From Candidatus Latescibacterota bacterium (GTDB lineage: Bacteria > Latescibacterota > UBA2968 > UBA8231), in NCBI GenBank assembly GCA_965203175.1, contig OZ241867.1:3648001-3712000 (forward strand): DNA of 64,000 nucleotides, given 5' to 3'. Position numbers and translations under genes: made by a program. The notes under the pieces are model-generated. The model made no database searches. It had not been told where the DNA came from and was given only the letters and a program-made list of their open reading frames with translations. This document shows, piece by piece, positions 6,581-61,075 of the stretch (its first letter is position 1; every line of letters begins with the position of its first letter).

Positions 6581-6595
6581 CTAACAGACCCCTCA

Positions 6596-8737
6596 CTACC
6601 AAGAGAACAGGAAGTTGCCGGTGCGCCCCGTGAAGTAGTCGATGATGAGCCAGAGGCCGAGGGTCAGCATCTGACCGGCGATCATCCCGAGGAAAAACCC
6701 CTGAGTACGGGGGTAGAGGTTGACGCCTCCGCACCGGACGATGATGACCTTGATGAACCAGGCGACGAACACGCTGGTAATGATGTGGGGCATCAGGTCC
6801 ACGGCCGCGACCGGGAAGCCGATCGGGTGGAGAGGCCACCAGGGCAGGCGGTGGCGAGCCCAGTAGAGCAGGGCCATGATGCCACCGCCACCGAATAGGA
6901 AACCGATGCCCGGCCAGTAGATGCCGGTAGGTTCTAGGTTGCGCACAGCGTTGTCGTAGGCGACCGTCGGTCCCATCTTGAAGAACCAATAATCGAGGTT
7001 GACGCCGCCGTAGCGGTAGGCGGCGTGGAAGATCATCCAGAACGAGCCCAGCGTCCCGATCAGCAGGGCGAGGATGAGAGCGAGGAAGACCAGCCGCCGG
7101 CTGCGCGCGTCCATATCCTCGATCAGCTTGAGGGCGTTCGTGCAGGTCGCCATGGCGAATGACCGGACCTCGTCGGCCCAGATGTAGGCCATGGCCATGT
7201 TGAACACGCCGGTGGGACCGACTAGAGATGAACCGAGACCCATGACGACGAAGTCGGGGGCGTTGACGGGCGTCCGCAGCGTCGCCAGCCCGGCTTCGGC
7301 GATGATCCGGGTGATGCCGATAAAGATCATCATGGCTAGGACGATGAAGAAAAGGGAGACCCATAGCGGTGTGCCCATGATCCACAGCCACAAGGTCATG
7401 ACCGCGATCCCCCCGAGGGTGCCGATCACGGCGCTGCGGTAGGAGAGGATCTCGTCCCGATCGTCGACGAGGGGTGCCCGGCCCAGGGCCTTGAGCCAGA
7501 CCGCCTTCAGATGCTCGCGGGCCGTCCACAGCACCACCGCCACCAGGACCAGCAGGGCACCCAGCCCCTCGTAGCCCACTAGGGGTGAGTCGGGGACGCC
7601 GTGGAAGTGCACCTGCTCCGATTTGATCCCGGCAATCGCCAGCGCGCTCTTCTGGAGCCTGCCGAGCAGGTAAAACACCCACACGCTGCCCGATATCCTC
7701 GTGTCGATGAGGTAGGTGAAGCCGGTCAGGGCGAAGTTGACCTTGCCGTCTAGGTACGGTATCGACAGGCGCATGGACACCATGGGAATGGAGGGGTTGT
7801 AGTTCGACATGGCCCTCAGGCTGCCGACGATGAACGGGATGGCCATGCCGATCCACACGGACGGACGCTTGAAGAAGCCGTTCACCAGCCTGTTTTCGTC
7901 CTCGCCGCGTATCATAGCCAAACCGACCTGGGCGATGGGATAGCTCAGCCGCTCCCGCTCCATCCACTGGCGCCGCAGGATCACGGCGATCGAGATCATG
8001 CAGACGTACAGTGCCAGCAGGAAGACAGCCCACCACAGCAACGGCTCGACCCAGGTGCCGTAGGGGATGCTTTGGCCGGGCTCGGAGATGCCCTCGTAGA
8101 ACAGGACGTTCCCAGCGCCGTCGTCGACTAGGATGTCGCGCTCGGGAAAGTGGGGGAAGAGCTTCTCCCGCCACTGGTTCTCCGGCGAGGCGTAGTAGAA
8201 GATGGCGGTGAGGGTGGGCAGGATCAGCTCGGTCAGGCCCATCGTACACACGGCCGAGACCATCGCCAGCATGGCATACACCATGATCAGTTCGGCGCGG
8301 TTGAGGGCTAGGCTGCGACCGGACCAAGCCAGCGGCACGTTGCCGAGGGCGCAGAGCAGCGCGAAGGTGGAGAAGATCAGCCCGGGCGAATGCACATCGA
8401 CGTCGTTCAGGGGCCAGTAGGAGTAGAGCCAGGCAGCCCCCACCGCCAGGGCAAAAGCGAGGGCTATTTCCCTGCTGCGTGCGGCCAGCTTGAAGGCTAG
8501 GTTGAGTAAGCCGATCAGCACGACGAAGACGAAGATGGCCCCCGGGGTGCTGATGTCGGCGGCCACGTAGGCGCCCTTGATGACCATGTTGCTGTAGGGG
8601 GCGCTGATGGCGAGGAAGAAGCTCAGGCAGCCCCCCACGAAGAACCCCCGCCACGTCAGGCGGTGGCGCGATTCGAGGAGGGGCTCGGAGCGCGACCGCA
8701 GGTACTGGCGGTAGAGCAGGGGGATTTTCTCTTTCAC
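6596..8737 (-). CDS. Polytopic inner-membrane protein, DUF6785/DUF6784-like (putative transporter)
   Basis: Many hydrophobic helices. Motifs ILRRQWMERERLSYPI, TRIIAEAGL and WWPLHPIG resemble this family (recalled, not searched). Confidence 0.75.
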   Translation of the reverse strand: MKEKIPLLYRQYLRSRSEPLLESRHRLTWRGFFVGGCLSFFLAISAPYSNMVIKGAYVAADISTPGAIFVFVVLIGLLNLAFKLAARSREIALAFALAVGAAWLYSYWPLNDVDVHSPGLIFSTFALLCALGNVPLAWSGRSLALNRAELIMVYAMLAMVSAVCTMGLTELILPTLTAIFYYASPENQWREKLFPHFPERDILVDDGAGNVLFYEGISEPGQSIPYGTWVEPLLWWAVFLLALYVCMISIAVILRRQWMERERLSYPIAQVGLAMIRGEDENRLVNGFFKRPSVWIGMAIPFIVGSLRAMSNYNPSIPMVSMRLSIPYLDGKVNFALTGFTYLIDTRISGSVWVFYLLGRLQKSALAIAGIKSEQVHFHGVPDSPLVGYEGLGALLVLVAVVLWTAREHLKAVWLKALGRAPLVDDRDEILSYRSAVIGTLGGIAVMTLWLWIMGTPLWVSLFFIVLAMMIFIGITRIIAEAGLATLRTPVNAPDFVVMGLGSSLVGPTGVFNMAMAYIWADEVRSFAMATCTNALKLIEDMDARSRRLVFLALILALLIGTLGSFWMIFHAAYRYGGVNLDYWFFKMGPTVAYDNAVRNLEPTGIYWPGIGFLFGGGGIMALLYWARHRLPWWPLHPIGFPVAAVDLMPHIITSVFVAWFIKVIIVRCGGVNLYPRTQGFFLGMIAGQMLTLGLWLIIDYFTGRTGNFLFSW

Positions 8738-8843
8738 GGGAGGCGCGTCAGTGGGTGAGGGCGGAGACCGGCCTCCCGCCCGAACGGACCCGAGGTTGGA
8801 GCGATGATGGCGACGCGCTTGCGATCCGCCTTGGTTGATCGCA

Positions 8844-10538
8844 TCACTGTTCCTCTTGTACCAAGGTTCTCAGGTTCTCTTCGTAGATCTTGACCTGGGG
8901 CTTGTACTGGTGCCGCAGTTCGCCTAGGTACCGGAAGAAGGCCGCATCGCGCTTCCGACGCAGGACTATGGCCCGGGCTCGAGGCGCGACCTCGGCGAAG
9001 GGCTTGGGGCCGGCTCCGAAGGTCGACTCGACGACCCTGAACACGGAATAGTAGCGGTCTGCTGACGCCGTACCGCCGGGGGTTACCGGCACTTCCACTT
9101 CGATGGGACCTAGTAGGTCGCCCGGCGCGGCTCCCTGTGCGGCTTCGAACAGGGCTTCGTGCGCTTCTCTCTGGTACTCATGGAGGTGGAATCGCCCGCT
9201 GTCTGGTATGGTCATGCGCCGCAGGGTGTGCTGCTGTGCCAGGACCCGCAGATCCTCACCGCGCTCAATCCGGTCCCGGAGCGATACTGCTTCTTCGCGC
9301 GTTGCGACCAGGATTTCGTCCAGCGTCAGGGCCTCTTGGGGGACGAAGCTCTGGAGATTCTGGGCATAGAAGCGCCGCGCCTCGTCCTCGTCCACCTGGA
9401 CGTCGCCCGTCACTTGCTTCCTGATGACCGCCAGCAGGCGTTCATGCTCCCTGGCTTGGTGCCAGGCGGCCATCTCCGGCTCGCGGTCGATTCCGGCATT
9501 GCGAGCGGCCTGCACGGCGAGCGCGCGGGGAACTAGGACGGACTCCGCAAACCAGCGCACCTGCTTTTGCACATCTCCCGAGAACTCCCGGTAGTTCTCC
9601 CGGGCCGAGTCCACGAACTCTCCCACCGTAATGGTGCCGTTGTCGAACTCGTAGAGTACTGTGCCGCGCTCCGCTTCGGAAAACGCGTGTCCCTCGCTCT
9701 CCAGACGCGTGATGAGAAGCTCAAAACCGTCTTCTCGGGGACGCAGGTTCAGAACTTCCAGCAGTTCTCGGCCAAGCTCTATGGATCGCAGGCGGGCCTT
9801 CTCCCGGTGGAGTTCGGCCCTCACCAGACTTCGCACTCGTTCGAGGGGAACGGGAACCTCGTCCACGACCTTGAACACGCCGTAGGTGCCGTCCGACAGG
9901 GGTATGGGTTCGGAGATCTGGCCCTTCGCGAGCGGAAAGACCTTTTCCCGCATGATGGGCTCGGGCATCTGGTCCTTGGTGGCGGGGTGCCCGGTGAACC
10001 GGCCGCCCCGCTCCGCGGTCGGGCGGTGGGTCGAGCGCTGCCGCGCCAACTCCCCGAAGTCGGCACCGCCCTGCAACAGGCGCACGATCTCCTCGGCTTC
10101 TTCTCTGCTCTCGACCTCGATCTTGCCCCCGATGATCGCGCGGTTCCGTCCGGTCTTCAGGTAGTGGTCGCGGATTTCCCGCTCTTCGACCTCGACCTTC
10201 GCGTTCACTTCCCGGGCAAAGAACTCGTTGACCAGCCGTTCGGTCCATTCGCGCTCCAGCTTGCGGCGCATGTCGGGGTCGCGGTCCCATCCCCGCGCTG
10301 CCGCTTCCCGAATGAGGATCTCCTTGTCGATCAGGGCCTGCAGATGCTGCCGTCGGCCTTCGATGCCCGCCTCCTTGGCTCTCAGGCTTTCCGCCAAGTG
10401 CTCTTCGAAGCGGCGCAACTGCGCTGCGTGAATGCGGGTGTCTCCCACCTCGGCCAGCACCGGCCCCTCCTCTCCTGCGCAACCCAACAGGAAGGTGCCC
10501 AGCACCAGGGCCAGCGGCATTGCCGCGCGTTTCATCAC
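8844..10538 (-). CDS. Parvulin/PpiC-type peptidyl-prolyl isomerase lipoprotein (SurA/PrsA-like), two rotamase-like halves
   Basis: Lipobox LLGC. Motifs GADFGELARQRS, GQISEPI, GEDLRVLAQQH, GDLLGPIE. Confidence 0.85.
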   Translation of the reverse strand: MMKRAAMPLALVLGTFLLGCAGEEGPVLAEVGDTRIHAAQLRRFEEHLAESLRAKEAGIEGRRQHLQALIDKEILIREAAARGWDRDPDMRRKLEREWTERLVNEFFAREVNAKVEVEEREIRDHYLKTGRNRAIIGGKIEVESREEAEEIVRLLQGGADFGELARQRSTHRPTAERGGRFTGHPATKDQMPEPIMREKVFPLAKGQISEPIPLSDGTYGVFKVVDEVPVPLERVRSLVRAELHREKARLRSIELGRELLEVLNLRPREDGFELLITRLESEGHAFSEAERGTVLYEFDNGTITVGEFVDSARENYREFSGDVQKQVRWFAESVLVPRALAVQAARNAGIDREPEMAAWHQAREHERLLAVIRKQVTGDVQVDEDEARRFYAQNLQSFVPQEALTLDEILVATREEAVSLRDRIERGEDLRVLAQQHTLRRMTIPDSGRFHLHEYQREAHEALFEAAQGAAPGDLLGPIEVEVPVTPGGTASADRYYSVFRVVESTFGAGPKPFAEVAPRARAIVLRRKRDAAFFRYLGELRHQYKPQVKIYEENLRTLVQEEQ

Positions 10539-13426
10539 TCCCTCAAACCTCCGTATACGGTGAAGTAAGTCAGGCCGCTCGTGTCCGTCCGGCCTTTGTG
10601 GACGAAGATGTCGATCTTCCGCCTGTCCACCCGAATCCCCAAGGTAGCCATCAGCCGATAGCCCGCGTAATTGCTCGCATTGGTCAGCTGCAGGGCGACG
10701 GAGAGTTCGTTGAAATCGCCGGTGGGATCGCCCGGATTCAGGCCGGCGAGGGGGTCGTCATCGAAGGCCACCTCCCGTTGGGCGAAGTCGCGGAAGATAA
10801 CCTGCTCTAGGCCGACGATTACCCTGCTGTGTCTCAATACTGGGATGTCCAGTCGCAGGGAGGCCAAGCCGGCCCACTCCTTGCGCTCGAACACCCGGTC
10901 GTTCAGGAGCCATTCGGTGTTGAACGGGGTATCGTCTAGGAACAGCTCGTGTTTGACGCGCGGACGGAGTTGGATTCCATTGCGCAGAGGCCAACGCCAG
11001 TCCAGCTTGTTGATCAAACCGAGCCGCCGAGTGTGCTGCGAGATCTTCCGGCCCGTCTGGTCCGCGGTGAGCTTCTCTCGTTGCCGCAGCACCTCATAGA
11101 TCAGCTTGTTCTCGGAGTTGATGCCGGCATGGCCCCGGCGCTCGAAGGTTAGGGACAGCTTGTTGACCCAAGTATTCGGCATGCCCAGCGGATCCGGGAT
11201 CGGGGTCATGCCCGCGTCCCTGAACCTTCCGTGCAGCCATTGGAAGAGGTCGTCGGCGATGTCGTCCTCGACCCGCTTCAACATGTTATAGACCGTCAAC
11301 TCGCCCACGTTGGGATAACTGCGCTCGAACGCGAAAAGGGTATAGCTGCTCACGTTGGTCTCGCCGGTTGAGGGACGGCGCACCCGCTGGTGGCCCGCGG
11401 TGATCTTGGCGCTTGGCACGATCCACGCACTGCCGTACACGTTGAATCCGCGGCGGTCGCGCTTGTACGGGTAGTCAGGTTCGTTGTCGTTCTCGAAACG
11501 GTCGCCCCAGCCGTTGTTGTTCATGTCGAGGCCGAAGAGATACTCGGGCCGGTCCACGCTGTAGCGCAGGAAAGGCTCGGCGTAGTCGGGCACATTGTTG
11601 GGCCGCACCCGGGTGTTGTTCTGGTTGAAATCGGAGATGAAATCGTTGTTCTCGTCGAGGCCGGGAAAAACCGCCTCGTCCGCGTACCCCTCGAACCCGC
11701 GCTGGATGCCGGTGCCCCGTTCCTCTTGGGTGCGGCCGTCGTCGAATATGCGCTGCTGGTCGTTCTTGCGGTCGTTGTCGTCGTTGTCGTCGACGAAGTC
11801 GTAGAGGTAGCGGGAATTGGCCAGCGGTGTGTCCGCGTAGTTGACCCGGCCCGCCGAGTCTATGAACCGCATGGTGGTCGAGTATGCGGCGTCCATGCCG
11901 AAGGCCTCGCCGAAGAGGTAGTACGGATGGAAATCCCTGGCCACGTTGACCATCCACCCTGCGGCGGAGGGATTTCCCCGAATGCCCGATGAGGTGGTGT
12001 GGGTGGTACGGCTCACGTCGGGGTACTTGCGGTACTGGTGGTTCACGTTGAACTCGCCGTAGAGCCTGAACCCGGCCAGATTCTCGGCCTCGACCGTAAA
12101 GCCGAGGACCTGGGTGGCAGTGGGCAGTCCGTAGTCAAAGACCACGGTGCCGAGGTTGGAATGGTCCTGCACATTTCCCTCAGCCCGCACCATGGTCCTG
12201 AACACCGGGCGCGGTTCGTAGAGGGCGTTGTCGGTCTGCTGGTCGGAAGTGACTTCGACCTTGTAGTCATTGCTGAGGATCATCCGGAATCGGACCTTGC
12301 TGATGTTGTTGATCACATCGGCTAGGGGCACCACCGTTTCCAGATCGTCGAGGATCGCCGGGTCCGGATCCGCCAGCACGTAGTCCAGTCGAATCCGTGC
12401 CAGTTCGCCACCGCCTTCGGCTGCTAGGAAGCCATCCCGAGAGACGCCTCCCGAAACCCTCGGATGGAAGCCGATCTGGCTGCCCACCAGCACCGTGTCC
12501 AGTTCTCCTACCCGGGTCGTAATCTCGATATCGTGGGCGAAGAGGGCGGGACCTGACTCGCCGTCTTCTGGGGAATCGTCGATAATCCGCACGGTGATCC
12601 GGTTGATGCGCGCGCCCGCCTGGTGGGAGCTCAGCCTGCCGGTGTATGGACTCCCGTCGAAGGGCTTGGTCGAGCTCCGCGCGTTGTGCGCGTTCACAAA
12701 GGTTCCGCCGAGGCGCGCGAAGTCGGCCACGTTCCAGACGGCCCGGAGACCGACGAGCGTGGTGAATTCGTCGATGAAACTGGACCTTGGCTCGACCAGC
12801 GGGACATTGATTCTGGACATGAGGGCCGTGGCCGAGCCGCGATCCGACATGTAGTCGAACTGGACCCCGTTGAAGGCCGTCTTGCGCAAGGTCATGGGCG
12901 TCAGGGTCGTGCTGATCTCGTCGCCGATGCTCACCCGGAAATGGTGCTGCCCTTTGGCGTCTGCAGAGACTACGAGGGAGCTGAGAAGGTTCTTGTAATC
13001 TTCGGTCTTGTGGAGCAGATTCCCCTCAGAGGTCCGGGGCCGGCTCTGTTGCCAGTCGTAGATCAGCCAGCCTCGGGTCAGGAGCCTGCCGTAAAGATCG
13101 TAGTGATAGTCGCCCTCCTGATCGGTGGCTAGGTAACGCGAATAGCGCTCGAAGGCGTAGTTGGTCGCCTCCCACTGCCAGCGGTATTGGTTGGCGACCT
13201 CCTGGGGCATGTACCATTTCTTGAGGGAAGGATCGAAGGTGTCCGTGCGCATGCTGGGACCCGCCGGGTAGTAGCTCACCCGGCCGCCTTCGCGGATTCC
13301 GAGGCGATTTCCGTAGTCCGACTGGGGCGAGCCGGGCTCGGCACCCAACGCGACTGCGAGGCCGACGAGGATTAGGGTTCGGGACCCGGATTGCACGGTG
13401 TGCACTTGGGGGGACTTGTTCATCAC
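10535..13426 (-). CDS. Large uncharacterised exported protein, probable outer-membrane beta-barrel with Asp-rich insert (paralog B)
   Basis: Signal-peptide-like N-terminus, alternating amphipathic strands ending TYFTVYGGL, motifs DDNDDNDRKND and DENNDFISDFNQN. Colinear with 13423-16227. Confidence 0.7.
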   Translation of the reverse strand: MMNKSPQVHTVQSGSRTLILVGLAVALGAEPGSPQSDYGNRLGIREGGRVSYYPAGPSMRTDTFDPSLKKWYMPQEVANQYRWQWEATNYAFERYSRYLATDQEGDYHYDLYGRLLTRGWLIYDWQQSRPRTSEGNLLHKTEDYKNLLSSLVVSADAKGQHHFRVSIGDEISTTLTPMTLRKTAFNGVQFDYMSDRGSATALMSRINVPLVEPRSSFIDEFTTLVGLRAVWNVADFARLGGTFVNAHNARSSTKPFDGSPYTGRLSSHQAGARINRITVRIIDDSPEDGESGPALFAHDIEITTRVGELDTVLVGSQIGFHPRVSGGVSRDGFLAAEGGGELARIRLDYVLADPDPAILDDLETVVPLADVINNISKVRFRMILSNDYKVEVTSDQQTDNALYEPRPVFRTMVRAEGNVQDHSNLGTVVFDYGLPTATQVLGFTVEAENLAGFRLYGEFNVNHQYRKYPDVSRTTHTTSSGIRGNPSAAGWMVNVARDFHPYYLFGEAFGMDAAYSTTMRFIDSAGRVNYADTPLANSRYLYDFVDDNDDNDRKNDQQRIFDDGRTQEERGTGIQRGFEGYADEAVFPGLDENNDFISDFNQNNTRVRPNNVPDYAEPFLRYSVDRPEYLFGLDMNNNGWGDRFENDNEPDYPYKRDRRGFNVYGSAWIVPSAKITAGHQRVRRPSTGETNVSSYTLFAFERSYPNVGELTVYNMLKRVEDDIADDLFQWLHGRFRDAGMTPIPDPLGMPNTWVNKLSLTFERRGHAGINSENKLIYEVLRQREKLTADQTGRKISQHTRRLGLINKLDWRWPLRNGIQLRPRVKHELFLDDTPFNTEWLLNDRVFERKEWAGLASLRLDIPVLRHSRVIVGLEQVIFRDFAQREVAFDDDPLAGLNPGDPTGDFNELSVALQLTNASNYAGYRLMATLGIRVDRRKIDIFVHKGRTDTSGLTYFTVYGGLRE

Positions 13427-16227: not shown

Positions 16228-16264
16228 GAAGAGGCCCTCTCTCGGTGAAATCGCCAAACCAGGT

Positions 16265-18448
16265 TCAGTATACCACTTCGACCACGGTGGTGGCCGTCTC
16301 AGCGCTGGCGCTGCTGTGTACGTCTATGCGAGCCAGATAGATCCCGGGCGGCACGAACTCACCACTGCTGTTGGTTCCATCCCATGGGATTGACCAGTGA
16401 CCGCCTCCTTGCTCGCCGGAGAAGAGACGGCGGACCAGGCGGCCGGCCAGATCGAGCACCTTTACCTCAACGGGTATGGGACCGATTACGCGCGACAGGT
16501 CGTAGGAGATGCGGGTCCGGTCGTTGACCCCGTCGCCGTTGGGGCTGAAGGGCCGCGGTCCGGTCCGGGTATTGATCAGGACGTCGCCGCCCGAAAAGGG
16601 CACGTCCACCGACAGCACCCGCGGATCCTCCGTTCCCACCGGGGGAAAGGTGGCGTCCTCGGGGCCGAGGTGGGCCGCGTTGCCGGCGAGGATCTTCTGA
16701 CCGGTGATCCCGGTCTCGGTGTTGCCGGCCCACCCGGTAAAGGTCGTCCCGTATCGGAGGACGCGGCAGCGAAACCGGATTCTCAGGACGGCGGCCTCGT
16801 CGGCCCCGAGGTCGCTATCCGCTATGAGCGGGAAGCGCACCCGGAACCGCCGTTCCTCGACCGCCTCGATGCCGAAGTCCGCGGCCGGATCGGTGGGCAG
16901 CGCCGACGGGCTCAGATCCCAACCGGAAAAATCGGCCGCCTCGGTGCGACCGTCGCGGAAAAGGACCTGGACCGAGTCGATCACTTCGACCCGGACCGGC
17001 GTGGCGATCTCGAAGGTGTCAAAGCCGCTGTCCCGGCCCGGCCGTATCCGGGTCGGCATGACCGCGTAGGTGAAGGTTTCCGCAACGGCCAGCTCGACCT
17101 GACGAGGGTAGATCTCGCCGACGATCCGCTCGGCCGCCGGCGAGAACACTGTGAAGGCCAACTGCCCAACCCCAGTCGCTGCCTTTAGGTCACGGCTCAC
17201 CATTTCGACCCGGACCTGAAAATAGCGCCGTGGGCCCGGAGTGGTGACGACCGCTCCAAGCTGCGCGTCAGCGATGTTCTCGACCGTGATGCCGCTGGTG
17301 CCCTCCTGTCCATAGGGAGCCGACCACGGCGTCCAGGCGTCTGGATCGTCCCGGATCTCGCCCCGTGGCTTCAGGCCGCGATAGTCCTCCAGGGTCAGAG
17401 CAACCCGATTCTTCTCTGTTAGCGGCAGCGCCCGGTAGGCTCGCAGCGCATCGAGCGGCTCTAAATCGTCCAGGGCAATCTGCTCTCCCGCGGCCGTAGT
17501 GGCGACCGCGCCCTGCTTATAGGGGAGATTCACCGAACCACCGGGACCGGGGCGGGTGAATTCCAAAGGCGTATCGTCGTGCCCGGCGCGCGTCGCAATG
17601 CGGGCCTGCGCCAGCCCTGCGGGACCGAAGCTCTCCTCGATCCACCGGATCTTGCCCCACACGCCCCAATTGTCCCCTAGATCGTAGACATTGGAGATGT
17701 ACTGGGCCCCGGGCACGAACCCCGCCCCGAATACCCGAAACTCGGCGATTTCGAAGCCGACGACCGTCTGCGACTTCAGTCGCAGGAAGCGCAGGTACTG
17801 GGGGGGAATTTGCAGGTCGACCACGGGATGATCGTTCTGCAGCTCTAGCTTGAAGCTGGTCAGCACCGGTCTGCCGGACTCGTCTGTGGTATTCTCGCTG
17901 CCGTCGTTGACCAGCAGCTCGTACGCGCGCAGATAGTCGTTCTGGAACGGAAAGTCGGGCGTCGCGAAACCTGGGGCGTTCCGCGGAAAGAACTGGATCC
18001 GGTTCACCCCGAAGGGCGCGCCTAGGTCAATGTCGAACATGGCCCCGAAGGCGAGGACCGGCGGCCCTCCCGCTTCGCCCTTTTGGGTGAAAGCCGTCTC
18101 GAGATCGCCGTCCACCATCAGGAGCAACTCCTCGGCGATGCCGAGCGTCAAGATGTTCGGCGAGGTCAGCGTGGCTCCAGCCGCGATATTCCTGGTGGAG
18201 TCGGCTCGCTGGGGGAAAATCCAGCCCGATTTGCCGGGGAAGTCGAAGTCCACCACATCGCCCGGGGTGTTGGTGATCGCGGCCTCGTCGACACTGATCT
18301 GCACCGCGGCCGGGATTTCTCCGCCGCCGCCGTTCCAGGGTTGGCCGCTGGTGCCGCCCAGCACCCGGCTGTCGGCGGCCAGATTCTGGGCCATCAGGCA
18401 GAATGTCCCGAGCAGGCCCAAGCTGAGGCTGATCCTCTGAATTCTCAC
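16265..18448 (-). CDS. Secreted protein with discoidin/F5-8-like region and C-terminal FlgD-Ig-like domain (paralog 3)
   Basis: Signal peptide; DGDLETAF and DLGAPFGVNRI; C-terminal FSPNGDGVND...DLAGRLVR...WDG...VPPGIY. Confidence 0.8.
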   Translation of the reverse strand: MRIQRISLSLGLLGTFCLMAQNLAADSRVLGGTSGQPWNGGGGEIPAAVQISVDEAAITNTPGDVVDFDFPGKSGWIFPQRADSTRNIAAGATLTSPNILTLGIAEELLLMVDGDLETAFTQKGEAGGPPVLAFGAMFDIDLGAPFGVNRIQFFPRNAPGFATPDFPFQNDYLRAYELLVNDGSENTTDESGRPVLTSFKLELQNDHPVVDLQIPPQYLRFLRLKSQTVVGFEIAEFRVFGAGFVPGAQYISNVYDLGDNWGVWGKIRWIEESFGPAGLAQARIATRAGHDDTPLEFTRPGPGGSVNLPYKQGAVATTAAGEQIALDDLEPLDALRAYRALPLTEKNRVALTLEDYRGLKPRGEIRDDPDAWTPWSAPYGQEGTSGITVENIADAQLGAVVTTPGPRRYFQVRVEMVSRDLKAATGVGQLAFTVFSPAAERIVGEIYPRQVELAVAETFTYAVMPTRIRPGRDSGFDTFEIATPVRVEVIDSVQVLFRDGRTEAADFSGWDLSPSALPTDPAADFGIEAVEERRFRVRFPLIADSDLGADEAAVLRIRFRCRVLRYGTTFTGWAGNTETGITGQKILAGNAAHLGPEDATFPPVGTEDPRVLSVDVPFSGGDVLINTRTGPRPFSPNGDGVNDRTRISYDLSRVIGPIPVEVKVLDLAGRLVRRLFSGEQGGGHWSIPWDGTNSSGEFVPPGIYLARIDVHSSASAETATTVVEVVY

Positions 18449-18464
18449 TCGATAGCCCCTAGCG

Positions 18465-21011
18465 TCAATACGCTACGTAGACCACGCGGTGCGCCTTGCG
18501 GCTCGATACGTCCGCGTCCACATCCACCTCGATCTCCAACAGGTAGGTCCCGGGGGGCACCAACCGACCGCTCTGGTCGTGGCCGGACCAGCGGACCGCG
18601 TAGGATCCGCTCGCGAGGGGACGCCGCTCCTCCCACTCCCGCACTAGGCCGCCGCCCAGATCGTAGAGGCGGGTTCTCACCGCGCGCTGCCCGCCGAGTC
18701 GGAAGACTGAAAACTCGAACCGCGCTTCGTCGTTGATTCCATCCCCGTTCGGGGTCAGGATCAGAGCACTGATCGTCAACGGGCCCATCACCCGCCCGTC
18801 TGCCAACGGCCCTCGCAACAGCATCCCCTGACTCGATGCCAGGGCGGTAGCATCGCCGGGATCCACCCGTTGCCACTGATCGGCCTCGGACGAATTTCCC
18901 AGTTCCGCCTGCAGGATGGTGCCGGGGCGGAACAGGGTCGTGGTGAACCGCACTTCGATCAGGTCGACGTCGGGGCCCACCGCCGAATCTAGGCGCACCC
19001 ACAGCGAGTCCGATCCGGCTGGGACCAACTCCAGATCAGATGGTCCCAACTCGGCCACCGGGCCGGTGGCCCACTGCGACTCCCGGCCCATGCGGAGGAG
19101 GTGAAAATCCAGGTCCACCCCCGGAGCGTACAGGCGAATCTGGTCCATTCCCGGGCCGCTCCGCAGGAACTCGGCCTTGACGAACAGAGATAGGGTGTCG
19201 ATGGCACCCAACTCGGATACCAGGTCCGGCTCGAGTTCGCCCCGGACCTGCCGGGCTAGGGGATCGAGAAAGTTCAGCCGAATCGACTGCAGGGAAGCCG
19301 TCTGGTGCGGATTACTGGTCGTCAGCCAGGCCTGGAGCATGAGGTACTCCCGGGGGCTCGGCGACGTGATGGGGGCTCCGGAGAAGTCGTATTCCTCGCT
19401 CCAGTCGCTCCAGTCACCCCCGGCCACCTGCTCAGTCACTATGTCGATATCCTTCTTGGCGAATTTGTTCAGCTTGTTGTACTGCTCCTCCGTTATCTCG
19501 CTGCCGTCCTTCTTGAAGTAGCGGAGGACATCGGCGAGCTGGTTGCCGGTCCGACTGCGCAGCGCGATGGAGGTCCCAGGGGGCGTATCTCCCTCCCATT
19601 CGATCGAACTCAGCGTCCGGGCACCGTCCAGCGTGATCAGGGGGGACGTGAGTGAAACGCGAGGCTGGTAGCCCTCGCCGTAGAACTGCATCTCCCGCGT
19701 GTCCGCCTGGCCTCCCGCCATGCCGCCGGAATAGGGAATGCTGATGTAGCGGGCGACCGTGGGTTCGAACACCTTGGCGTGGTAATCCATGCCGTCCTGA
19801 CCCCCGAGTGCTTGGCTGGTCCAGGCCAGTGTTCCCTCGGGTGTCAGGCTCCCGTCCGAGGTCCTGATTTCGTACTCGGTGATGGGTCCCTGAAAGCCCT
19901 TGTTCTGGAAGAACATCTGCACTCGATCCACCCAGAAAAAGGCACCTAGGTCGAAGAAGAAGAAGCGCAGGGCGGGCGTGCGGACCGTGGTCCCCACCGT
20001 CGTTTCGTACAGGCCGTCCACCAAGCTGGTGACTGCGGTGGTATCCGTCTCTATCTTTTGCGCCACTCCCCGGCGGCCCGTCAACCCCAGGGCGATGTTC
20101 TCGCCTATGGTCCGCACTTCCATCGCGGCCAGACGGGGCCGCTCGCGGCGGAAGTACCGGACCTCGCCACGCGATCCCGCGTCGATCGCCTCGTAGATCT
20201 CCGGTTCGACCCGGATGCTCCCATCGGCCACCTTCTTATAGTAGTCCACTGCCCCCTGGCGGCCTAGCTCCAAGGCGTCGTAGACTTCGCGGGATACTTC
20301 GGTGCCTCGCACCGAGTCACTTTCCGTCACCACGAGCTGAACGTAGCGGATTTCGTCCCCTCGCCACTCGGGATCGCGGGAGTCTCCCGACGGTTTCAGC
20401 TCGATGTCGAAGGAACGTTGGCTCTTGTTCGCGCCCGAACTTGCGTAGGCGACGACGTAGCTCTTGACGTCCCTCAGGCCCTGCTCGGGACGCTCGCCGT
20501 CCGAGGTCAGAAGGGTGTACTGGAGAAAGGGGTCCCCGAGATCCTCGTCCACGAAGGTCAGGAGGATCCTGGTGGCGGACACGACCCGCCCTAGATCCAA
20601 CTCGAACCACCAGTCGCGCAGTGGCTGGTCCGGGTCGGGCTGCCAGTACGAGGTCAGATCCCCGTCAAGGAGGTTGGCTACCCCGGCCGCATTGGTGCCA
20701 GCACTCACCGCGTCCAGCAAGTCGACGTCTTCAGCCTTGACCCCTTTGGGCGGGTTCCGTCGCAGGTGCCCGACAAGGTCCTGGGTCGCGTCGATGTCCT
20801 TGGCCACAAAGTTCGGTCGAGCCGCGTCCGCCGGGGCGAAGAACTCCACTGTGCCGACTGGGAAATCCCAGGTTTTCAGGTGGCGGCCCTCTACCACGAT
20901 CTGGTTGCCGCGGATGACGTACCCTTGGCCCCAGACCGCACTGCCACACAGGATCCAGAGAGCCAGTGCCGTGCTGATCCTGCCGTTTATGTTGCCACAC
21001 CTCTTTCGCAT
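18465..21011 (-). CDS. Secreted protein with two discoidin-like regions and C-terminal FlgD-Ig-like domain (paralog 2)
   Basis: LLDGDLTSYW...ELDLG, second copy LVDG...FDLG, C-terminal LTPNGDGINDE...VPPGTY. ATG at 21011 precedes a signal peptide. Confidence 0.8.
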   Translation of the reverse strand: MRKRCGNINGRISTALALWILCGSAVWGQGYVIRGNQIVVEGRHLKTWDFPVGTVEFFAPADAARPNFVAKDIDATQDLVGHLRRNPPKGVKAEDVDLLDAVSAGTNAAGVANLLDGDLTSYWQPDPDQPLRDWWFELDLGRVVSATRILLTFVDEDLGDPFLQYTLLTSDGERPEQGLRDVKSYVVAYASSGANKSQRSFDIELKPSGDSRDPEWRGDEIRYVQLVVTESDSVRGTEVSREVYDALELGRQGAVDYYKKVADGSIRVEPEIYEAIDAGSRGEVRYFRRERPRLAAMEVRTIGENIALGLTGRRGVAQKIETDTTAVTSLVDGLYETTVGTTVRTPALRFFFFDLGAFFWVDRVQMFFQNKGFQGPITEYEIRTSDGSLTPEGTLAWTSQALGGQDGMDYHAKVFEPTVARYISIPYSGGMAGGQADTREMQFYGEGYQPRVSLTSPLITLDGARTLSSIEWEGDTPPGTSIALRSRTGNQLADVLRYFKKDGSEITEEQYNKLNKFAKKDIDIVTEQVAGGDWSDWSEEYDFSGAPITSPSPREYLMLQAWLTTSNPHQTASLQSIRLNFLDPLARQVRGELEPDLVSELGAIDTLSLFVKAEFLRSGPGMDQIRLYAPGVDLDFHLLRMGRESQWATGPVAELGPSDLELVPAGSDSLWVRLDSAVGPDVDLIEVRFTTTLFRPGTILQAELGNSSEADQWQRVDPGDATALASSQGMLLRGPLADGRVMGPLTISALILTPNGDGINDEARFEFSVFRLGGQRAVRTRLYDLGGGLVREWEERRPLASGSYAVRWSGHDQSGRLVPPGTYLLEIEVDVDADVSSRKAHRVVYVAY

Positions 21012-21043
21012 CTGGGAGCCGTTGACTAAAGTTCCTGTGGGCC

Positions 21044-23011
21044 TCAATACGCCACCGCGATCAGGCGGGTTTCGCTGTCGCGGCCCCCTTCGCGATCGAC
21101 CGCGACCCGGCATACGTAGAGCCCCGGCGGCACCAACTGGCCATCCCTGTCACGTCCGTCCCAAGGCTGGATGTACTGACCCGAATGGTCCCGGCCCACA
21201 TACACCTCCCGCACTAGCCGGCCCGATAGATCCCATACCTCGACCTCCACCAGCCGGTTCTCGGTCAATTTCAGCAGGTCGTACTGAATCGCCACCGCGT
21301 CGTTGATGCCGTCTCCGTTGGGTGTAAACGCGGCCGGCTCGATCCGCAGCCTGCCCACAATTGACGCGCCCAGCGACAGCGTCTCGACCGACAGACGGTT
21401 GCCGTCCAGCGCGTTGGTCGCATCGCCGCCCCGCACCGGTTGCCAGACCTCAGCCGGCGCTTGGCTGTCGAAAACGCGACCTTGGAAGGTCGCCGCATAC
21501 CGATACACTTCGCCCCGCAGCCGAACCTGCAGCAACTCGCCGCTCTGGTTCACCTCTAGCCGCGGAAAGCTCACCACCACCCGGTTCTCGGTGCGCAGGC
21601 TGTCCGCTTCCGTGAACGCTACCGCCGCTCCCGCCATCTCGACCTCGACCACCTCCACCACCCGGCCCCCCTGAAAGCGCAACTCAAGGCTGTCGAAACC
21701 CCGATCCTGCAGCGACAAGGTGGGCCGCACCGCGTACGTGAACTCGGTCAGCTCCGACGTCTCGGCCTGCCACGGATCCACCTCTCCCACCAGATCCGTC
21801 GCCGCCGGCGGCGACGAAACCGCGAATTCGAGGAAATTCACCTGCCCCCCATCTAGAAAATCACTGGCGAAGTCAAGCGAAAACTGCACGTAGTTGCGCG
21901 GCCGCGGTGCCACCATCGGCACCCCCAGACTGTCGCCAAATGAATACGGTGCCGACCACAGGTCCCAGTTTGCTGCGTCATGGGTGATGCGGCCTTTCTC
22001 TTTTTCCTTCAGCTTGTCGTACTGCGCTCGGGTCAGCGGCGATCCGTCCGCCCCATACGGGACCTCCTCGTCGCCCCGGAAGGTCCGCCGCCAGTACCGA
22101 GATGGCTCTGGATCGTCGCCGCCATGACTGCGAATCGCTACCCGGGCCGACTCGTCTTGGCGGCCCGACCAGCGCACCCAGCCCAGACTGGAGGGGGAGC
22201 CCAGCGGAATGGTGTTCGAGGTATAGCTAGCGAACGGTACATACCCCTCGGCGAACGCCTCCATCTCCGCAATCTCCCACGCCTGCCGCTGAAACGGGTT
22301 GACCCACAGCGCCAACTGTCGCACCGGCGTCCGGTCGAGGGGGATCTCCACCACTGGGCTTTTGTTCTGCGTGATCTCCGTCACCAGATCGAAGTCGAGC
22401 GGCGTTTCTCGAACGAGTTTTCTGTGGAATTCAAGGTGAGATCGGTTCGGCGTTCCCCCATGGGGTACGCCACTGCCGGTGGCGATGGCCATGTGCTCGA
22501 TGTAGTGCGGGGAGCCGGGCCGCGGCGACACCCGCACCCGGTTCACCGGGAACAGGCCGCCCAGGTCGAAGTACAGGGTGAAGCCGGTGATACCGCCGCC
22601 CGGACTGTAATCCGACAGCGACGCATTGTGTTCCAAGAAGAAGGTGGTGAAGTCCCCATCCGCGACCACGTCCAGGTTCGGATCGTGGCCATAGCCCGTA
22701 TAGCGCTCGGTCCTCAAGAAGCCGCCCCGTTCTTCCGCTGTGGCCAGGATGCTCTCGTCGCTGCCGTAGTAGAAAGGTGCCAGCGCTCCAGCTAGGTTGA
22801 CGCTGTCGAAGTCGCCGGCCCGGGCGGGATCCACGTCGGTCCAGCTCAACTGCTCGAACTCGACGCTGCCGTCTGCTACCTCCGGGAGCAGGGGAAAGCT
22901 CGCGTAGTCCTCGCCGCCCAGCCGGTAGATCTTGACCGCATCTGCGGGACGCCACATTCCCGCGCCCACCACTAGGCACAAGAGCAGGCCTGCCAATCGC
23001 GCTTTTGCCAA
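21044..23011 (-). CDS. Secreted protein with discoidin-like region and C-terminal FlgD-Ig-like domain (paralog 1)
   Basis: TTG start at 23011 behind GAGGGT, then signal peptide. DGDFTTF, FDLGGLFPVNRV, FTPNGDGIND...WDGRD...VPPGLY. Confidence 0.8.
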   Translation of the reverse strand: MAKARLAGLLLCLVVGAGMWRPADAVKIYRLGGEDYASFPLLPEVADGSVEFEQLSWTDVDPARAGDFDSVNLAGALAPFYYGSDESILATAEERGGFLRTERYTGYGHDPNLDVVADGDFTTFFLEHNASLSDYSPGGGITGFTLYFDLGGLFPVNRVRVSPRPGSPHYIEHMAIATGSGVPHGGTPNRSHLEFHRKLVRETPLDFDLVTEITQNKSPVVEIPLDRTPVRQLALWVNPFQRQAWEIAEMEAFAEGYVPFASYTSNTIPLGSPSSLGWVRWSGRQDESARVAIRSHGGDDPEPSRYWRRTFRGDEEVPYGADGSPLTRAQYDKLKEKEKGRITHDAANWDLWSAPYSFGDSLGVPMVAPRPRNYVQFSLDFASDFLDGGQVNFLEFAVSSPPAATDLVGEVDPWQAETSELTEFTYAVRPTLSLQDRGFDSLELRFQGGRVVEVVEVEMAGAAVAFTEADSLRTENRVVVSFPRLEVNQSGELLQVRLRGEVYRYAATFQGRVFDSQAPAEVWQPVRGGDATNALDGNRLSVETLSLGASIVGRLRIEPAAFTPNGDGINDAVAIQYDLLKLTENRLVEVEVWDLSGRLVREVYVGRDHSGQYIQPWDGRDRDGQLVPPGLYVCRVAVDREGGRDSETRLIAVAY

Positions 23012-23067
23012 GATGTCACCCTCTTGTCGTGTGGGCTCAACCCGCGCACCGTTGGGCTGATTATTAG

Positions 23068-23101
23068 GGAAGGGGGGATGTGAGACCACATCCCCCCTTC
23101 C
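23068..23101. terminator. Perfect 15-bp intercistronic hairpin (terminator, attenuator or mRNA stabiliser)
   Basis: GGAAGGGGGGATGTG-AGAC-CACATCCCCCCTTCC. Confidence 0.7.
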
Positions 23102-23150
23102 TTCGCGCTATGGAGCTCGAACCGCTAGCAGCGAACCTGCTCGTCGCCAG

Positions 23151-24065
23151 CTACTGAGTGAACGCAGCCTTGATGCGGCCCCAGCTCTCGGCTTCGACTG
23201 CCGTGCCAAAATCGACATCCTCCAACGGAGCCAGCAGGAAGTCGGTGGATACCGACGAGGTTTTCCAAACCGTTGCCTCGCCATTCAGGATCCACTGATC
23301 TCGGTCGTTATTCTCCGTATTGTCATAGTCGGTGATCTCCCAGTTCAGACCGATGATATCACCTTCTACCATGTCGTGCACCACACTGCCGTCTGGGTCA
23401 TCCCACTGCAGGTCGTCCCACAACGTGAGCATCCACTCTGCATGGCCGGTGACGTCGGCGGCGTTGAGCGCGGCGGCATCCGACGAGTACCCATTGTCGG
23501 CCCACGGCAGTTCGCCGGTCCAGGTAGCTTGGCTCTGCCAGTACCAGGCCCACGCCGTCGCCTCGTTGTTCACGTTCGGCGACGAAGGATCGATATCCGG
23601 GAGGCGGAAGTGGATATTCTGGGCCCAGCGCGAGCCGTTTTCCGGCTCTGCTCCAGGGTCATACCAGGAGTCTTCGCCGCCGTGGTCCCCGTCGACGTTC
23701 ATCTCGAAGCTGTCGGGTAAGTTAGCTTCGGCAACGAGAACGGAGACGTCCCGCTTGCGGAAATTGTCGAACACCTCGTGGTGCATATAGAGACGATCGG
23801 TACTTGCGCTATAACCGACGATGACCTTGCTGTTGAGACTGGACAGGTCTGTCCACTTCTCGCCGGACGGAGACGCGTAGTACTCTGGCCCAATCCAGTA
23901 GTCCGCGGGAACCACGGCCCACTCGGACAGATCCCCGTCCAGGGTCGGCTCGGCACCCGCTGGGAACTGGAACGCGAGCAGAACTTGGCCCTCTGGCACA
24001 TGGCCCCAGGCGGAAAAAGCAAAGCCCACAGTCAGGCACAGGGCGATAAGCATAGCCTTCTTCAT
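23151..24065 (-). CDS. Secreted CBM9/DOMON-like acidic protein with C-terminal TAVE..SWGRIK motif
   Basis: ATG at 24065 behind GGAGG, signal peptide MKKAMLIALCLTVGFAFSAWG, PTLDGDLSEW, DSFEMNVDGD, GDIIGLNWEITDYD. Confidence 0.75.
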   Translation of the reverse strand: MKKAMLIALCLTVGFAFSAWGHVPEGQVLLAFQFPAGAEPTLDGDLSEWAVVPADYWIGPEYYASPSGEKWTDLSSLNSKVIVGYSASTDRLYMHHEVFDNFRKRDVSVLVAEANLPDSFEMNVDGDHGGEDSWYDPGAEPENGSRWAQNIHFRLPDIDPSSPNVNNEATAWAWYWQSQATWTGELPWADNGYSSDAAALNAADVTGHAEWMLTLWDDLQWDDPDGSVVHDMVEGDIIGLNWEITDYDNTENNDRDQWILNGEATVWKTSSVSTDFLLAPLEDVDFGTAVEAESWGRIKAAFTQ

Positions 24066-24205
24066 TATGTGGAACCTCCACGATGCTGATTCCCCGGCCC
24101 TAGGCGCTCTAGGGCAGCAGGAATCGGGTTGCATGAACATTTTGTAGTAATGTATAAATTGGTCTTGGTGCGGGGCAATAAAAAAACCGAGACCGACCAC
24201 ACTCG

Positions 24206-25744
24206 CTAAGGGGCGAGTTGTGCCATGCGTGCCTCTAGCGCTGCAAGCTGACGGGCATCTCCCCGCCAGTAGGCGACCGCTAGCCGGTATGCCCGCAGTG
24301 CCGCATCCACTTGGCCCGTCTGTTCGTATGCCTCTCCGAGCGCGTAGTGGGCCTTCGCGTTGGTGGCGTCCAACCTCTCCACGGCCTCGAACACCGCGAT
24401 CGCTTGGTCGTAGGCTTGCTGGCGGAGGTAGAACTGTCCGAGGCTCAGGCGGGGCTCGACCCAATTCGGCCGGTGGCGGATCGCTGTCTTGTAGGCCTGC
24501 TCGGCCTGGTCCAGGCGTCTCTGAAGCAGCCCCACGTTGCCTAGGGCGTGGTGGGCTTTGGCAAACGTCGTGTCTACTTGTAGGGCCTGCTCGAAGGACC
24601 GACGGGCTTGGTCCAGGTGTCCGTTCTGGACGGCGACGTAGCCGATGGTGAAGTGGGCCTCGCAGGCTTCGCGCTGATTCGGGGCTTGGGTGATCACCTG
24701 GCGGGCCAGCGCCACCGCTTCGTCTAGGTTGCCCTGATTCAGGTAGGCATGGCCCAATCCTGAGAGGGCTCTGACATGCTCGGGCTGGCGCTCCAAGACC
24801 GCCCGGTACATTCCGATGGCCTGCTCCCACCGGCCGAGCTCGCCGTAGGAGCGCCCCGCCGCCAGATAGGAATCTAGGTCGCCGCCGGCCTGATTTACCT
24901 GTTTTTCCAAGGCTCGCACTTGGGCGGCCCGCCGGTTCAGCTCGGCAAAGCGGTCGAGCAGTATCTGGGCTTGCTCCTCGCGCCCTTGGGCGGAGTAGAG
25001 ATTGGCCATACTGTAGTAGGCCTCGGGATAGGCCGGGTCGATCTCGAGAGCCCGGCGCAGCATTCCTTCGGCCTCCTCGTAGCGCTCCGCGTAGGTGTAG
25101 AGCACCCCGAGTTCCCGGTGGGCCTCCTTGTTGTCGGGATCGAATCTGACAGCGCGCGTCAACAGATCCTCAGATTCTGCCCGGCGTCCTTGCAGCCGAA
25201 AGAGTCGGCCCAAGCTCCACAGCGCCTCAGCATCGGCTGAATCGGTCGCCACGGCCCGCACTAGGGCCTCCTCGGCCCGGTCGTACGCCCCCTGTTCCTG
25301 GTGCAGACCGGCCAAAAGACGGTACGAGGGAGCCGTGCCCGGATCGATGCGCACGGCCTCTTCCAACAGGGCGACCGCCTCCCGGTGGCGTTTCATCTCT
25401 CCGTAGGCCACGGCCAGATTGTGGTAGGCCAGAACAAGGCTCGAATCCAGACGAATGGCGGCCAGATACGCGGTCTCCGCCGAATCCCTGCGGCCCAACT
25501 TCATGTAGGCCGTGGCCAGATGGCAGTGGGCTTCCGCGGAGAGGGAGTCCAGGGCCACTGCCTGCTGATACGCGGCGAGTGCGTCGCGGTACCGGGCTTG
25601 GCGGAAATAGGTGTGCCCGAGCGTGCGAAGCCGGTCTTTCTCTGGGTCCGGTGCCGGCGATTCAGGTGCTTGGCACGCGCCCAGCCAGATCGCCATCAGG
25701 GCAGCGGTGGTGCGGCGAAACAAAACTGCGTACGTCGAATGCAT
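24206..25744 (-). CDS. Tetratricopeptide-repeat lipoprotein
   Basis: Lipobox LGAC followed by about a dozen TPR units (AHxxLG...A...Y..A...DP). Confidence 0.85.
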   Translation of the reverse strand: MHSTYAVLFRRTTAALMAIWLGACQAPESPAPDPEKDRLRTLGHTYFRQARYRDALAAYQQAVALDSLSAEAHCHLATAYMKLGRRDSAETAYLAAIRLDSSLVLAYHNLAVAYGEMKRHREAVALLEEAVRIDPGTAPSYRLLAGLHQEQGAYDRAEEALVRAVATDSADAEALWSLGRLFRLQGRRAESEDLLTRAVRFDPDNKEAHRELGVLYTYAERYEEAEGMLRRALEIDPAYPEAYYSMANLYSAQGREEQAQILLDRFAELNRRAAQVRALEKQVNQAGGDLDSYLAAGRSYGELGRWEQAIGMYRAVLERQPEHVRALSGLGHAYLNQGNLDEAVALARQVITQAPNQREACEAHFTIGYVAVQNGHLDQARRSFEQALQVDTTFAKAHHALGNVGLLQRRLDQAEQAYKTAIRHRPNWVEPRLSLGQFYLRQQAYDQAIAVFEAVERLDATNAKAHYALGEAYEQTGQVDAALRAYRLAVAYWRGDARQLAALEARMAQLAP

Positions 25745-56693: not shown

Positions 56694-56707
56694 AGATTGG
56701 TCTCCGT

Positions 56708-61068: not shown

Positions 61069-61075
61069 GGCCTGA

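Follow-up and report, generated by a model that had tools for sequence, protein, structure and literature searches.

A conserved multi-copy envelope cassette in Latescibacterota encodes two paralogs of a predicted new outer-membrane β-barrel family

Results

Organization of the Nine-Gene Cassette

We analyzed a 64-kb stretch of DNA (the window) from contig OZ241867.1 of a Candidatus Latescibacterota bacterium, in which an original prediction, made from the sequence alone, had pointed to nine co-oriented genes as a candidate undescribed envelope-spanning system. Positions 6596–25744 indeed contain nine large open reading frames (ORFs), all on the minus strand and arranged head to tail. We find that this cassette represents an envelope system conserved in multiple copies in Latescibacterota and in metagenome-assembled genomes (MAGs) labelled Gemmatimonadota. 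Its genes are given below in the order of transcription, followed by a divergent neighbor.

24206–25744, minus strand: TPR-repeat lipoprotein, 512 amino acids, with an LGAC lipobox; first gene transcribed
23151–24065, minus strand: CBM9-like small secreted protein, 304 amino acids including the signal peptide; its start lies inside a longer ORF
21044–23011, minus strand: IgC, secreted, with a C-terminal FlgD-Ig/CHU_C domain
18465–21011, minus strand: IgB, the longest Ig paralog, with an extra N-terminal module (F5/8 type C), then a body resembling IgA and a C-terminal domain as in IgC
16265–18448, minus strand: IgA, the Ig paralog that precedes BarA, with FlgD_ig
13423–16227, minus strand: BarA, predicted outer-membrane β-barrel of ~24 strands, new family
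10535–13426, minus strand: BarB, paralog and constant partner of BarA
8844–10538, minus strand: parvulin-type peptidyl-prolyl isomerase (PPIase) lipoprotein, 564 amino acids, with an LLGC lipobox and long SurA/PpiD-like flanking regions
6596–8737, minus strand: polytopic inner-membrane protein with DUF6785 and DUF6784; facultative member and last gene
26102–28039, plus strand: PMT_2-TPR membrane protein, divergent from the cassette; recurrent neighbor

The GC content at third codon positions is 0.78–0.89 in eight of the nine ORFs and 0.62 in the over-long ORF that contains the CBM9-like gene. Start codons were refined to 24065 for the CBM9-like gene (MKKAML...), 23011 for IgC (a TTG preceded by an AAGAGGG site), 21011 for IgB, and 16227 for BarA, the last giving a protein of 934 amino acids, which is the length of most of its closest homologs. 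The BarA/BarB junction is CTGTGATGAAC and the BarB/PPIase junction is GAGTGATGAAA; both read GTGATGA across the stop codon. The 4-bp overlaps proposed earlier at 13423–13426 and 10535–10538 hold if the downstream gene starts at the GTG, but shrink to 1 nt if it starts at the next ATG.

Two potential stem-loops were noted between the first genes of the cassette. A perfect GC-rich hairpin with arms GGAAGGGGGGATGTG and CACATCCCCCCTTCC lies 3′ of the CBM9-like stop codon, before IgC (approximately 23011–23151, minus strand), and a stem followed by a T-run lies 3′ of the stop codon of the TPR gene (approximately 24066–24205, minus strand). Because of these stem-loops, the cassette may be expressed as more than one transcript or with attenuated read-through. 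A consensus promoter and terminator scan of positions 6400–26300 found sites no more numerous than in shuffled sequence.

Conservation of the Cassette in Related Loci

A profile scan for the barrel family in one genome per species yielded 617 tblastn-confirmed relatives of BarA. The best 80 of these 617 were taken as the loci for study, each retrieved together with as much as 10 kb of sequence on either side, and the nine window proteins were searched against all ORFs of the 80 loci by phmmer; presence was counted in the 61 loci whose flanks are complete. The counts apply to close members of the barrel family, at least 46% identical to BarA, and the genomes are related. By label, 61 of the 80 loci are from Latescibacterota MAGs and 19 are from MAGs labelled Gemmatimonadota, Gemmatimonadetes, Gemmatimonadaceae, or Gemmatimonas.

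The families of the cassette recur together in these loci. IgA and BarA are present in all 61 full-flank loci, IgC in 59, BarB in 58, the CBM9-like protein in 57, the PPIase in 54, IgB in 49, the TPR lipoprotein in 35, and the DUF6785 protein in 26. At least three Ig-family ORFs occur in 58 of the 61, and a core set consisting of the CBM9-like protein, at least three Ig paralogs, BarA, BarB, and the PPIase is complete in 46. The predicted co-occurrence in other genomes is thus observed both for the core set and for its single families (49–61 of 61 loci). The TPR and DUF6785 genes are facultative members of the cassette. In one locus type (L019, L020, L022, L024, and L025), DUF6785 genes are found in tandem pairs.

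In 76 of 77 loci, IgA and BarA are encoded on one strand with IgA directly 5′ of BarA and a median of 32 nt between them; the remaining case is a fragment located at the edge of a contig. The first labelled gene 3′ of BarA in the 77 loci is BarB in 66, the PPIase in 8 (then followed by BarB), and IgC or the CBM9-like gene in 3, all with a single barrel. Three single-barrel variants (L077, L079, and L069) have BarA with no BarB within 10 kb, and these represent natural tests of an obligatory BarA/BarB pairing. Beyond these junctions, the IgA–BarA–BarB module and the CBM9-like–IgC–IgB module vary in their relative order and position, giving approximately eight arrangements. Such shuffling of module order speaks for selection on the gene set rather than recent common descent of one operon.

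The 80 loci are distributed over 45 genomes, 22 of which contain two to five of them; with 80 of the 617 relatives retained, this copy number per genome is a minimum. Conserved gene order and copy number had been suggested as a test; the gene set is kept and multiple copies are present in the 22 genomes, but the order is shuffled. Similarly, the description of the set as envelope-spanning is true for a subset only, since DUF6785 is facultative: it applies to the 26 of 61 loci with a DUF6785 gene and not elsewhere.

A trivial explanation would be that no system exists and that unrelated genes are adjacent by chance. The stem-loops after the TPR and CBM9-like genes hint at more than one transcription unit, and the promoter and terminator scan gave nothing above chance, yet finding the same families together in 46–61 of the 61 loci despite shuffled order effectively excludes this explanation. 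The gene association is far beyond chance.

BarA and BarB Belong to a Predicted New Barrel Family

BarA and BarB are 934–963 amino acids long and share 37% identity over 955 columns, spanning their full length. At E ≤ 10, their only Pfam match is a chance-level one to dCache_1 (E = 0.14). NCBIfam gave no match at E ≤ 0.01, and a BarA sequence profile compared with Protein Data Bank (PDB) chains returned nothing useful. We modeled BarA with AlphaFold2 by using an alignment of 89 diverse relatives, which replaced an earlier 18-sequence alignment that performed poorly (predicted local distance difference test, pLDDT, of 58). The resulting model is confident, with a mean pLDDT of 86.3 and a predicted template modeling (pTM) score of 0.85. 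It contains 23 long antiparallel strands and additional short N-terminal strands and is consistent with a barrel of 24 strands running to the C-terminus. These results agree with the assignment of two paralogous barrels of ~940 amino acids in the original prediction.

The BarA model contains two large inserts, numbered here on the 944-amino-acid ORF. A β-sandwich insert of ~185 residues (~257–442) carries the invariant motif DDSPxDG. An acidic, Asp/Asn-rich insert of ~125 residues (~520–644), with 30 Asp/Glu and 13 Asn, is without regular structure and is the best-conserved part of the barrel family. Both inserts would be extracellular, as judged from the DSSP string of the model, because strands can be counted back from the periplasmic C-terminus and the turns of 2–4 residues then all fall on the periplasmic side. 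The N-terminal ~100 residues are conserved and aromatic-rich, with model confidence that is low in part.

In a FastTree phylogeny of 155 barrel sequences, restricted to ORFs with at least 750 aligned residues and a score of 300 or more, all 75 BarB sequences group in a single clade (support 1.0) that includes no BarA; the 80 BarA sequences lie outside. Since the BarB clade is free of BarA, the A/B duplication came before the cassettes diversified, and the two copies have been retained. From the model and this tree, BarA and BarB emerge as paralogs that separated long ago within a new family of predicted outer-membrane barrels with ~24 strands, and they probably act as a pair.

A whole-library profile search for barrels returned 961 clusters at 50% identity (E ≤ 1e-3), with 341 at E ≤ 1e-30. 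For the distant branch of the family, the profile search retrieved only records labelled Latescibacterota or Gemmatimonadaceae. The distant-relative profile gave no informative outgroup or fused barrel form, with the "longer" and "shorter" length classes not searched. Among the 120 BarA homologs listed, nine carry an organism name (five Latescibacter*, three Gemmatimonad*, and one Gammaproteobacteria), and all are annotated as "hypothetical protein".

Foldseek comparison of the BarA model with the PDB found generic giant barrels only, with template modeling (TM) scores of at most 0.25 (query-normalized): SlpA and its complex, LptD, MtrB, FimD/PapC, TonB-dependent receptors, and SprA. The best structural matches are the SlpA/deinoxanthin-binding complex, LptD, and MtrB, with FimD also among the top ones; they are headed by Deinococcus SlpA (8ae1, E = 1.2e-7), together with its S-layer deinoxanthin-binding complex (8agd and 7zgx). 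These matches suggest a structural explanation, in which the two barrels would resemble SlpA as giant porins of high abundance and would underlie a surface layer composed of Ig and CBM9-like proteins. In keeping with this, 6 of 18 distant barrel relatives give sub-threshold matches to SlpA_C (PF21620; E = 7.6e-5 to 2.5e-3, 17–22 bits against a cutoff of 35), which are a lead for remote kinship rather than membership. However, BarA and BarB themselves do not match SlpA_C even at E ≤ 10, and the TM scores are 0.16–0.25, with 0.25 for the top match 8ae1. The cassette also has no SLH domain, coiled coil, OstA/LptD domain, or cytochrome partner, and several diverged copies per genome with differing enzyme neighbors are unlike a single structural layer. 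We rejected an assignment of the barrels as SlpA/OmpM-type porins and regard a purely structural envelope role of the cassette as very unlikely.

The Ig Paralogs and the CBM9-Like Protein

IgA and IgC are 28% identical over 688 columns (E = 1e-48), and the similarity of IgA to IgB covers the C-terminal half of each (E = 2e-24). Alignment of the family profiles with hhalign paired residues 84–727 of IgA with residues 302–848 of IgB at a probability of 100 (E = 1.3e-67), indicating that IgB consists of an IgA-like body and an extra N-terminal module. The C-terminal domains of all three proteins have the common motif F(S/T)PNGDG(I/V)ND. Pfam FlgD_ig (cutoff 27) is matched above its cutoff by IgA (34.6 bits) and IgC (30.8 bits), and CHU_C (cutoff 27) is exceeded in IgC alone (29.4 bits, compared with 21.6 in IgA and 18.1 in IgB). 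NCBIfam TIGR04131 reaches 20 bits in IgC, against a cutoff of 35, and is absent in IgA and IgB. Within the IgA family, all 26 scanned members match both FlgD_ig and CHU_C (CHU_C at E ≤ 0.01), and the FlgD Ig domain alone was found when the IgA profile was compared with PDB chains. The Ig proteins have signal peptides, not lipoboxes.

A discoidin-type match to F5_F8_type_C (PF00754) was detected in IgB only, within its N-terminal module (34.0 bits against a cutoff of 28.2, E = 3.8e-8). The IgB body, to which the IgA body is homologous, begins with a similar β-sandwich. The earlier description of three paralogous discoidin/FlgD-Ig proteins can be retained for the paralogy and for FlgD_ig in IgA and IgC, but the discoidin label corresponds to a domain match in IgB and is a call from sequence patterns in IgA and IgC.

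The small secreted protein has no Pfam or NCBIfam match, and its family profile found nothing significant among PDB sequences. Its "CBM9-like" label comes from an ESM-Atlas lead alone, with PF06452 assigned to 37%, 13%, and 100% of the members of the three nearest clusters.

Lipoproteins and Inner-Membrane Proteins

The PPIase matches Rotamase_2 (PF13145; E = 9.6e-15, 55.9 bits) and Rotamase (PF00639; E = 1.5e-13, 52.0 bits), and a lipobox-like motif is present in 37 of 62 N-termini of its family. The TPR lipoprotein matches Pfam TPR_1/TPR_2 (E ~ 1e-63), with a lipobox-like motif in 14 of 29 family N-termini. The last gene encodes a protein with at least 12 hydrophobic segments that matches DUF6785 (PF20581; E = 5.7e-110, 368.6 bits) and DUF6784 (PF20580; E = 1.5e-24, 86.5 bits). 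Together with the LGAC and LLGC lipoboxes, these matches confirm the TPR lipoprotein, the parvulin lipoprotein, and the polytopic membrane protein as they were first described.

All 120 matches listed in a profile search with the DUF6785 family carry both DUF6785 and DUF6784, and their names are absent or read "DUF6785 family"; the same profile found nothing among PDB sequences. The protein is possibly an OPT-like permease, a lead that comes from PF03169 on 11% of the members of one archaeal ESM-Atlas cluster. Membership of the OPT family itself was rejected, as PF03169 gave no match at E ≤ 10.

The divergent gene at 26102–28039 encodes a protein with ~11 hydrophobic segments, a PMT_2 match just above the cutoff (E = 1e-5, 26.2 bits against 26.1), and C-terminal TPR families. 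The same PMT_2 and TPR architecture occurs in two ORF clusters, in 13 and 6 of the 80 loci (for example, L007:12933-14876 and L026:985-3195). This GT-C glycosyltransferase-like protein may glycosylate exported proteins.

Neighboring Genes

The 80 loci contain 275 unlabelled ORFs, which we grouped into clusters; representatives of these were searched against Pfam. The commonest accessory neighbors are FG-GAP/UnbV_ASPIC (CRTAC1-like) proteins, with 41 ORFs in 30 of the 80 loci (for example, L058:4279-6456); none was seen among the window ORFs scanned. Pentapeptide-repeat proteins occur in 12 loci and Receptor-L-domain proteins in 7. Amidohydrolase_2 is found immediately 3′ of BarB in 8 loci. Other metabolic or transport neighbors are MR_MLE enolase-superfamily enzymes (7 loci), PhyH dioxygenases (6), FGE-sulfatase and D-Glu cyclase (5 each), sulfatase, SBP_bac_5, and HpcH aldolase (4 each), and 2-hydroxyacid dehydrogenase and M28 peptidase (3 each). 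MalK-type ABC ATPases (L077) and a BNR sialidase-like protein were each seen in single representative loci. These metabolic and transport neighbors differ with locus type. A conserved soluble protein of ~714 amino acids without a Pfam match lies 3′ of the PPIase in eight loci of one cassette type (L011:17090-19231 and seven others), the position taken by DUF6785 in the window.

The original prediction had also noted glycosidase-like genes at 28–35.6 kb of the window. This holds in a limited way for 32241–33167, which gives weak, sub-threshold GH130-type matches in Pfam and NCBIfam, but not for the others; 34502–35641 is a DUF4432 protein.

Further genes of interest lie elsewhere in the window. 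On the 3′ side of the cassette are a hybrid GAF-PAS histidine kinase with a receiver and a winged-helix output (2140–4620, minus strand) and a GH108 lysozyme with PG_binding_3 (4767–5330, plus strand); no cassette link was seen for either in the related loci. An 822-amino-acid ORF at 49336–51804 (minus strand) joins LNT_N and CN_hydrolase to a complete TatC and looks like an Lnt-TatC fusion. Positions 55704–63893 (minus strand) hold a corrinoid methyl-transfer cluster with B12-binding, RACo activase, MTHFR with DUF5981, pterin-binding, and homocysteine S-methyltransferase-like proteins.

Comparison with Known Envelope Systems

Searches of Pfam and NCBIfam with the nine cassette proteins gave no match to SusC/Plug, SusD, TonB, type 9 secretion system (T9SS) core, or pilus families, in agreement with the absence of such genes noted at first reading. 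We rejected BarA and BarB as a TonB-dependent transporter or SusC, given that neither Plug (PF07715) nor TonB_dep_Rec (PF00593) was found and that the Foldseek TM scores are 0.12–0.20. A SusD-like surface lipoprotein was likewise rejected, as none of the nine proteins matches a SusD family. LptD and BamA-TamA (Omp85) were also discarded, with no OstA/LptD or POTRA match and LptD TM scores of 0.17–0.21.

The SprA/Sov translocon of the T9SS is a protein of ~2,400 amino acids with a 36-strand barrel. BarA and BarB, with 934–963 amino acids, ~24 strands, and no family match, do not fit this description, and the comparison with 8gl8_A gave a TM score of 0.22 for the query and 0.12 for the target. 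No T9SS core genes (SprA, PorV, and GldK/L/M/N) are present within the 64-kb window.

No description of the cassette, of the barrel family, or of DUF6785/DUF6784 was found in the literature searched, subscription-only papers aside; the same is true for Latescibacter combined with T9SS. We rate the machinery of the cassette as new because the defining features of the testable candidate families are missing and no literature description was found, and we infer its functional class from the comparisons made here. The proposal of an undescribed system is in line with these results, as the families co-occur and the barrels match neither TonB-dependent receptors nor SprA.

Sus-type polysaccharide utilization loci (PULs) of Bacteroidota exist in many copies and combine a constant outer-membrane core and surface binding proteins with variable enzymes and transporters; SusC is a plugged 22-strand barrel. 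The cassette resembles them in that a genome can contain several divergent copies, in that enzymes and inner-membrane transporters vary around an outer-membrane core that is constant, and in that several predicted surface binding proteins are encoded beside a barrel gene; both occur in the Fibrobacterota–Chlorobiota–Bacteroidota (FCB) superphylum. In contrast to Sus-type PULs, the cassette lacks Plug, TonB_dep_Rec, a TonB box, and SusD, and it has two predicted ~24-strand barrels instead of one plugged 22-strand barrel. Its binding proteins carry a signal peptide and a FlgD-Ig/CHU_C tail rather than a lipobox, and it has a dedicated parvulin.

Surface display is another function that could be served by such a gene set. 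BarA and BarB would then form the outer-membrane translocon and/or the anchor of their own Ig proteins, with the parvulin as periplasmic chaperone. Adhesion to particles or hosts would be the task of the Ig and CBM9-like proteins, and the cassettes would amount to an adhesin repertoire, by analogy with enterobacterial chaperone-usher operons. Several observations are consistent with this explanation: the FlgD-Ig/CHU_C tail with its F(S/T)PNGDG(I/V)ND motif on all three Ig proteins and in the 26 IgA-family members, the IgA gene directly 5′ of BarA in 76 of 77 loci, and the near-constant chaperone gene (54 of 61 loci). The neighbors point the same way, consisting of extracellular repeat proteins (FG-GAP/ASPIC, Receptor L, and pentapeptide) and the GT-C-like PMT_2-TPR protein.

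Two known systems bear on display. Ushers are 24-strand barrels with a β-sandwich insert early in the barrel, and FimD and PapC are among the Foldseek matches of BarA. The cassette shares with chaperone-usher systems a barrel of ~24 predicted strands with a β-sandwich insert after the first 6–7, Ig-fold substrates, a dedicated chaperone, and several operons per genome. However, BarA is without the N- and C-terminal periplasmic domains of ushers, its insert probably faces outward by strand parity, and the TM scores of ~0.2 are no higher than for other barrels. An assignment as fimbrial usher was rejected, with no Usher (PF00577), PapC-terminal, or PapD match, a chaperone that is a parvulin, and a barrel that runs to the C-terminus. 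The second comparison is with T9SS cargo carrying a C-terminal domain (CTD) of type B: in the part of the source cited here, type B CTD proteins are described as associating with PorP-like barrels (PMC9143113). The Ig proteins of the cassette have borderline CHU_C/type-B-like ends and the IgA gene adjoins a barrel gene, a similarity to such cargo with its PorP/SprF anchor, but the cassette barrels are ~940 amino acids long with no PorP/SprF match, and TIGR04131 stays under its cutoff.

Across the whole cluster, no Usher, PapD, PorP/SprF, POTRA, or two-partner secretion match was obtained. Display also leaves unexplained the DUF6785 permeases, the catabolic enzymes that go with locus type, and the retention of two distinct barrels. 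Taken together, we regard display, with the corresponding adhesin repertoire, as the main rival of an uptake function and as somewhat less probable.

Discussion

A Possible Capture-and-Uptake System

Our favored explanation is that the cassette is a lineage-specific, PUL-like capture-and-uptake system unrelated to known ones, to which we assign a probability of roughly 0.4. We prefer a role in uptake because the cassette is present in multiple copies with clade-specific catabolic and transport neighbors, because binding-type modules are found among its proteins, and because no other route for polymer uptake has been predicted in print for Latescibacteria. The relevant part of the 2015 Latescibacteria genome paper describes outer-membrane uptake via non-specific porins only, with SusC unmentioned there (PMC4454575). 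To the extent that this part of the paper predicts non-specific porins alone, a role in polymer uptake appears to be unfilled in the phylum.

In such a system, the large loop inserts of the barrels would serve as docking sites at the cell surface for the CBM9-like protein and for the three Ig paralogs, which are Sec-exported and carry jelly-roll or discoidin-type modules. There these proteins would bind a polymeric substrate, either a glycan or a glycoprotein. Fragments of the substrate would pass through BarA/BarB into the periplasm, and in loci that have one, the DUF6785/DUF6784 permease would carry the products over the inner membrane. The parvulin lipoprotein, and the TPR lipoprotein where present, could serve as dedicated periplasmic biogenesis factors. 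Diverged copies with different enzymes would then fill the role of Sus-type PULs with unrelated parts and without a TonB-type plug. The gene set and its conservation, the paralogy, the modeled barrel fold, and the domain content are results of the analysis; the surface location of the Ig proteins, their docking, the direction of transport, and the class of substrate we infer. That a heteromeric, plug-less barrel pair, lectin-like proteins on FlgD-Ig-type tails, and a parvulin, arranged in substrate-specific cassettes, amount to the PUL principle invented a second time, and let polymers cross an outer membrane without TonB, is possible, if doubtful.

Several results weigh against uptake as the function of the cassette. 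The carbohydrate-binding assignment is weak for three of the four candidate binding proteins. IgA and IgC of the window have no PF00754 match, with a weak F5_F8_type_C match in 1 of 26 IgA-family members, and CBM9 (PF06452) matches none of 25 family members of the small protein at E ≤ 0.1, so that of the CBM9-like designation only the ESM-Atlas lead stands. The window operon contains no clear carbohydrate-active enzyme and has one weak GH130-like gene nearby. No TonB box, Plug, or other part for energy coupling was found in the cassette with Pfam and NCBIfam, and the DUF6785 permease is not within 10 kb in 35 of the 61 full-flank loci. The most constant partners and neighbors (PPIase, TPR, PMT_2-TPR, FG-GAP/ASPIC, and pentapeptide proteins) look more like components of biogenesis or display than of catabolism. 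Finally, the 80 best-scoring loci come from 45 related genomes, and their counts are not independent and are silent on distant relatives.

Implications for Latescibacterota

Latescibacterota are a widespread phylum without cultured members that has been portrayed in genome studies as degrading polymers. A cassette kept in multiple diverged copies is likely central to the lifestyle of this phylum. The cassette provides a predicted new outer-membrane fold family, marker genes for annotation, and targets for metatranscriptomes. If it is a display machine, it would represent a new mode of anchoring surface proteins; if it is an uptake machine, it would be a second, independent solution to the problem that SusCD solves.

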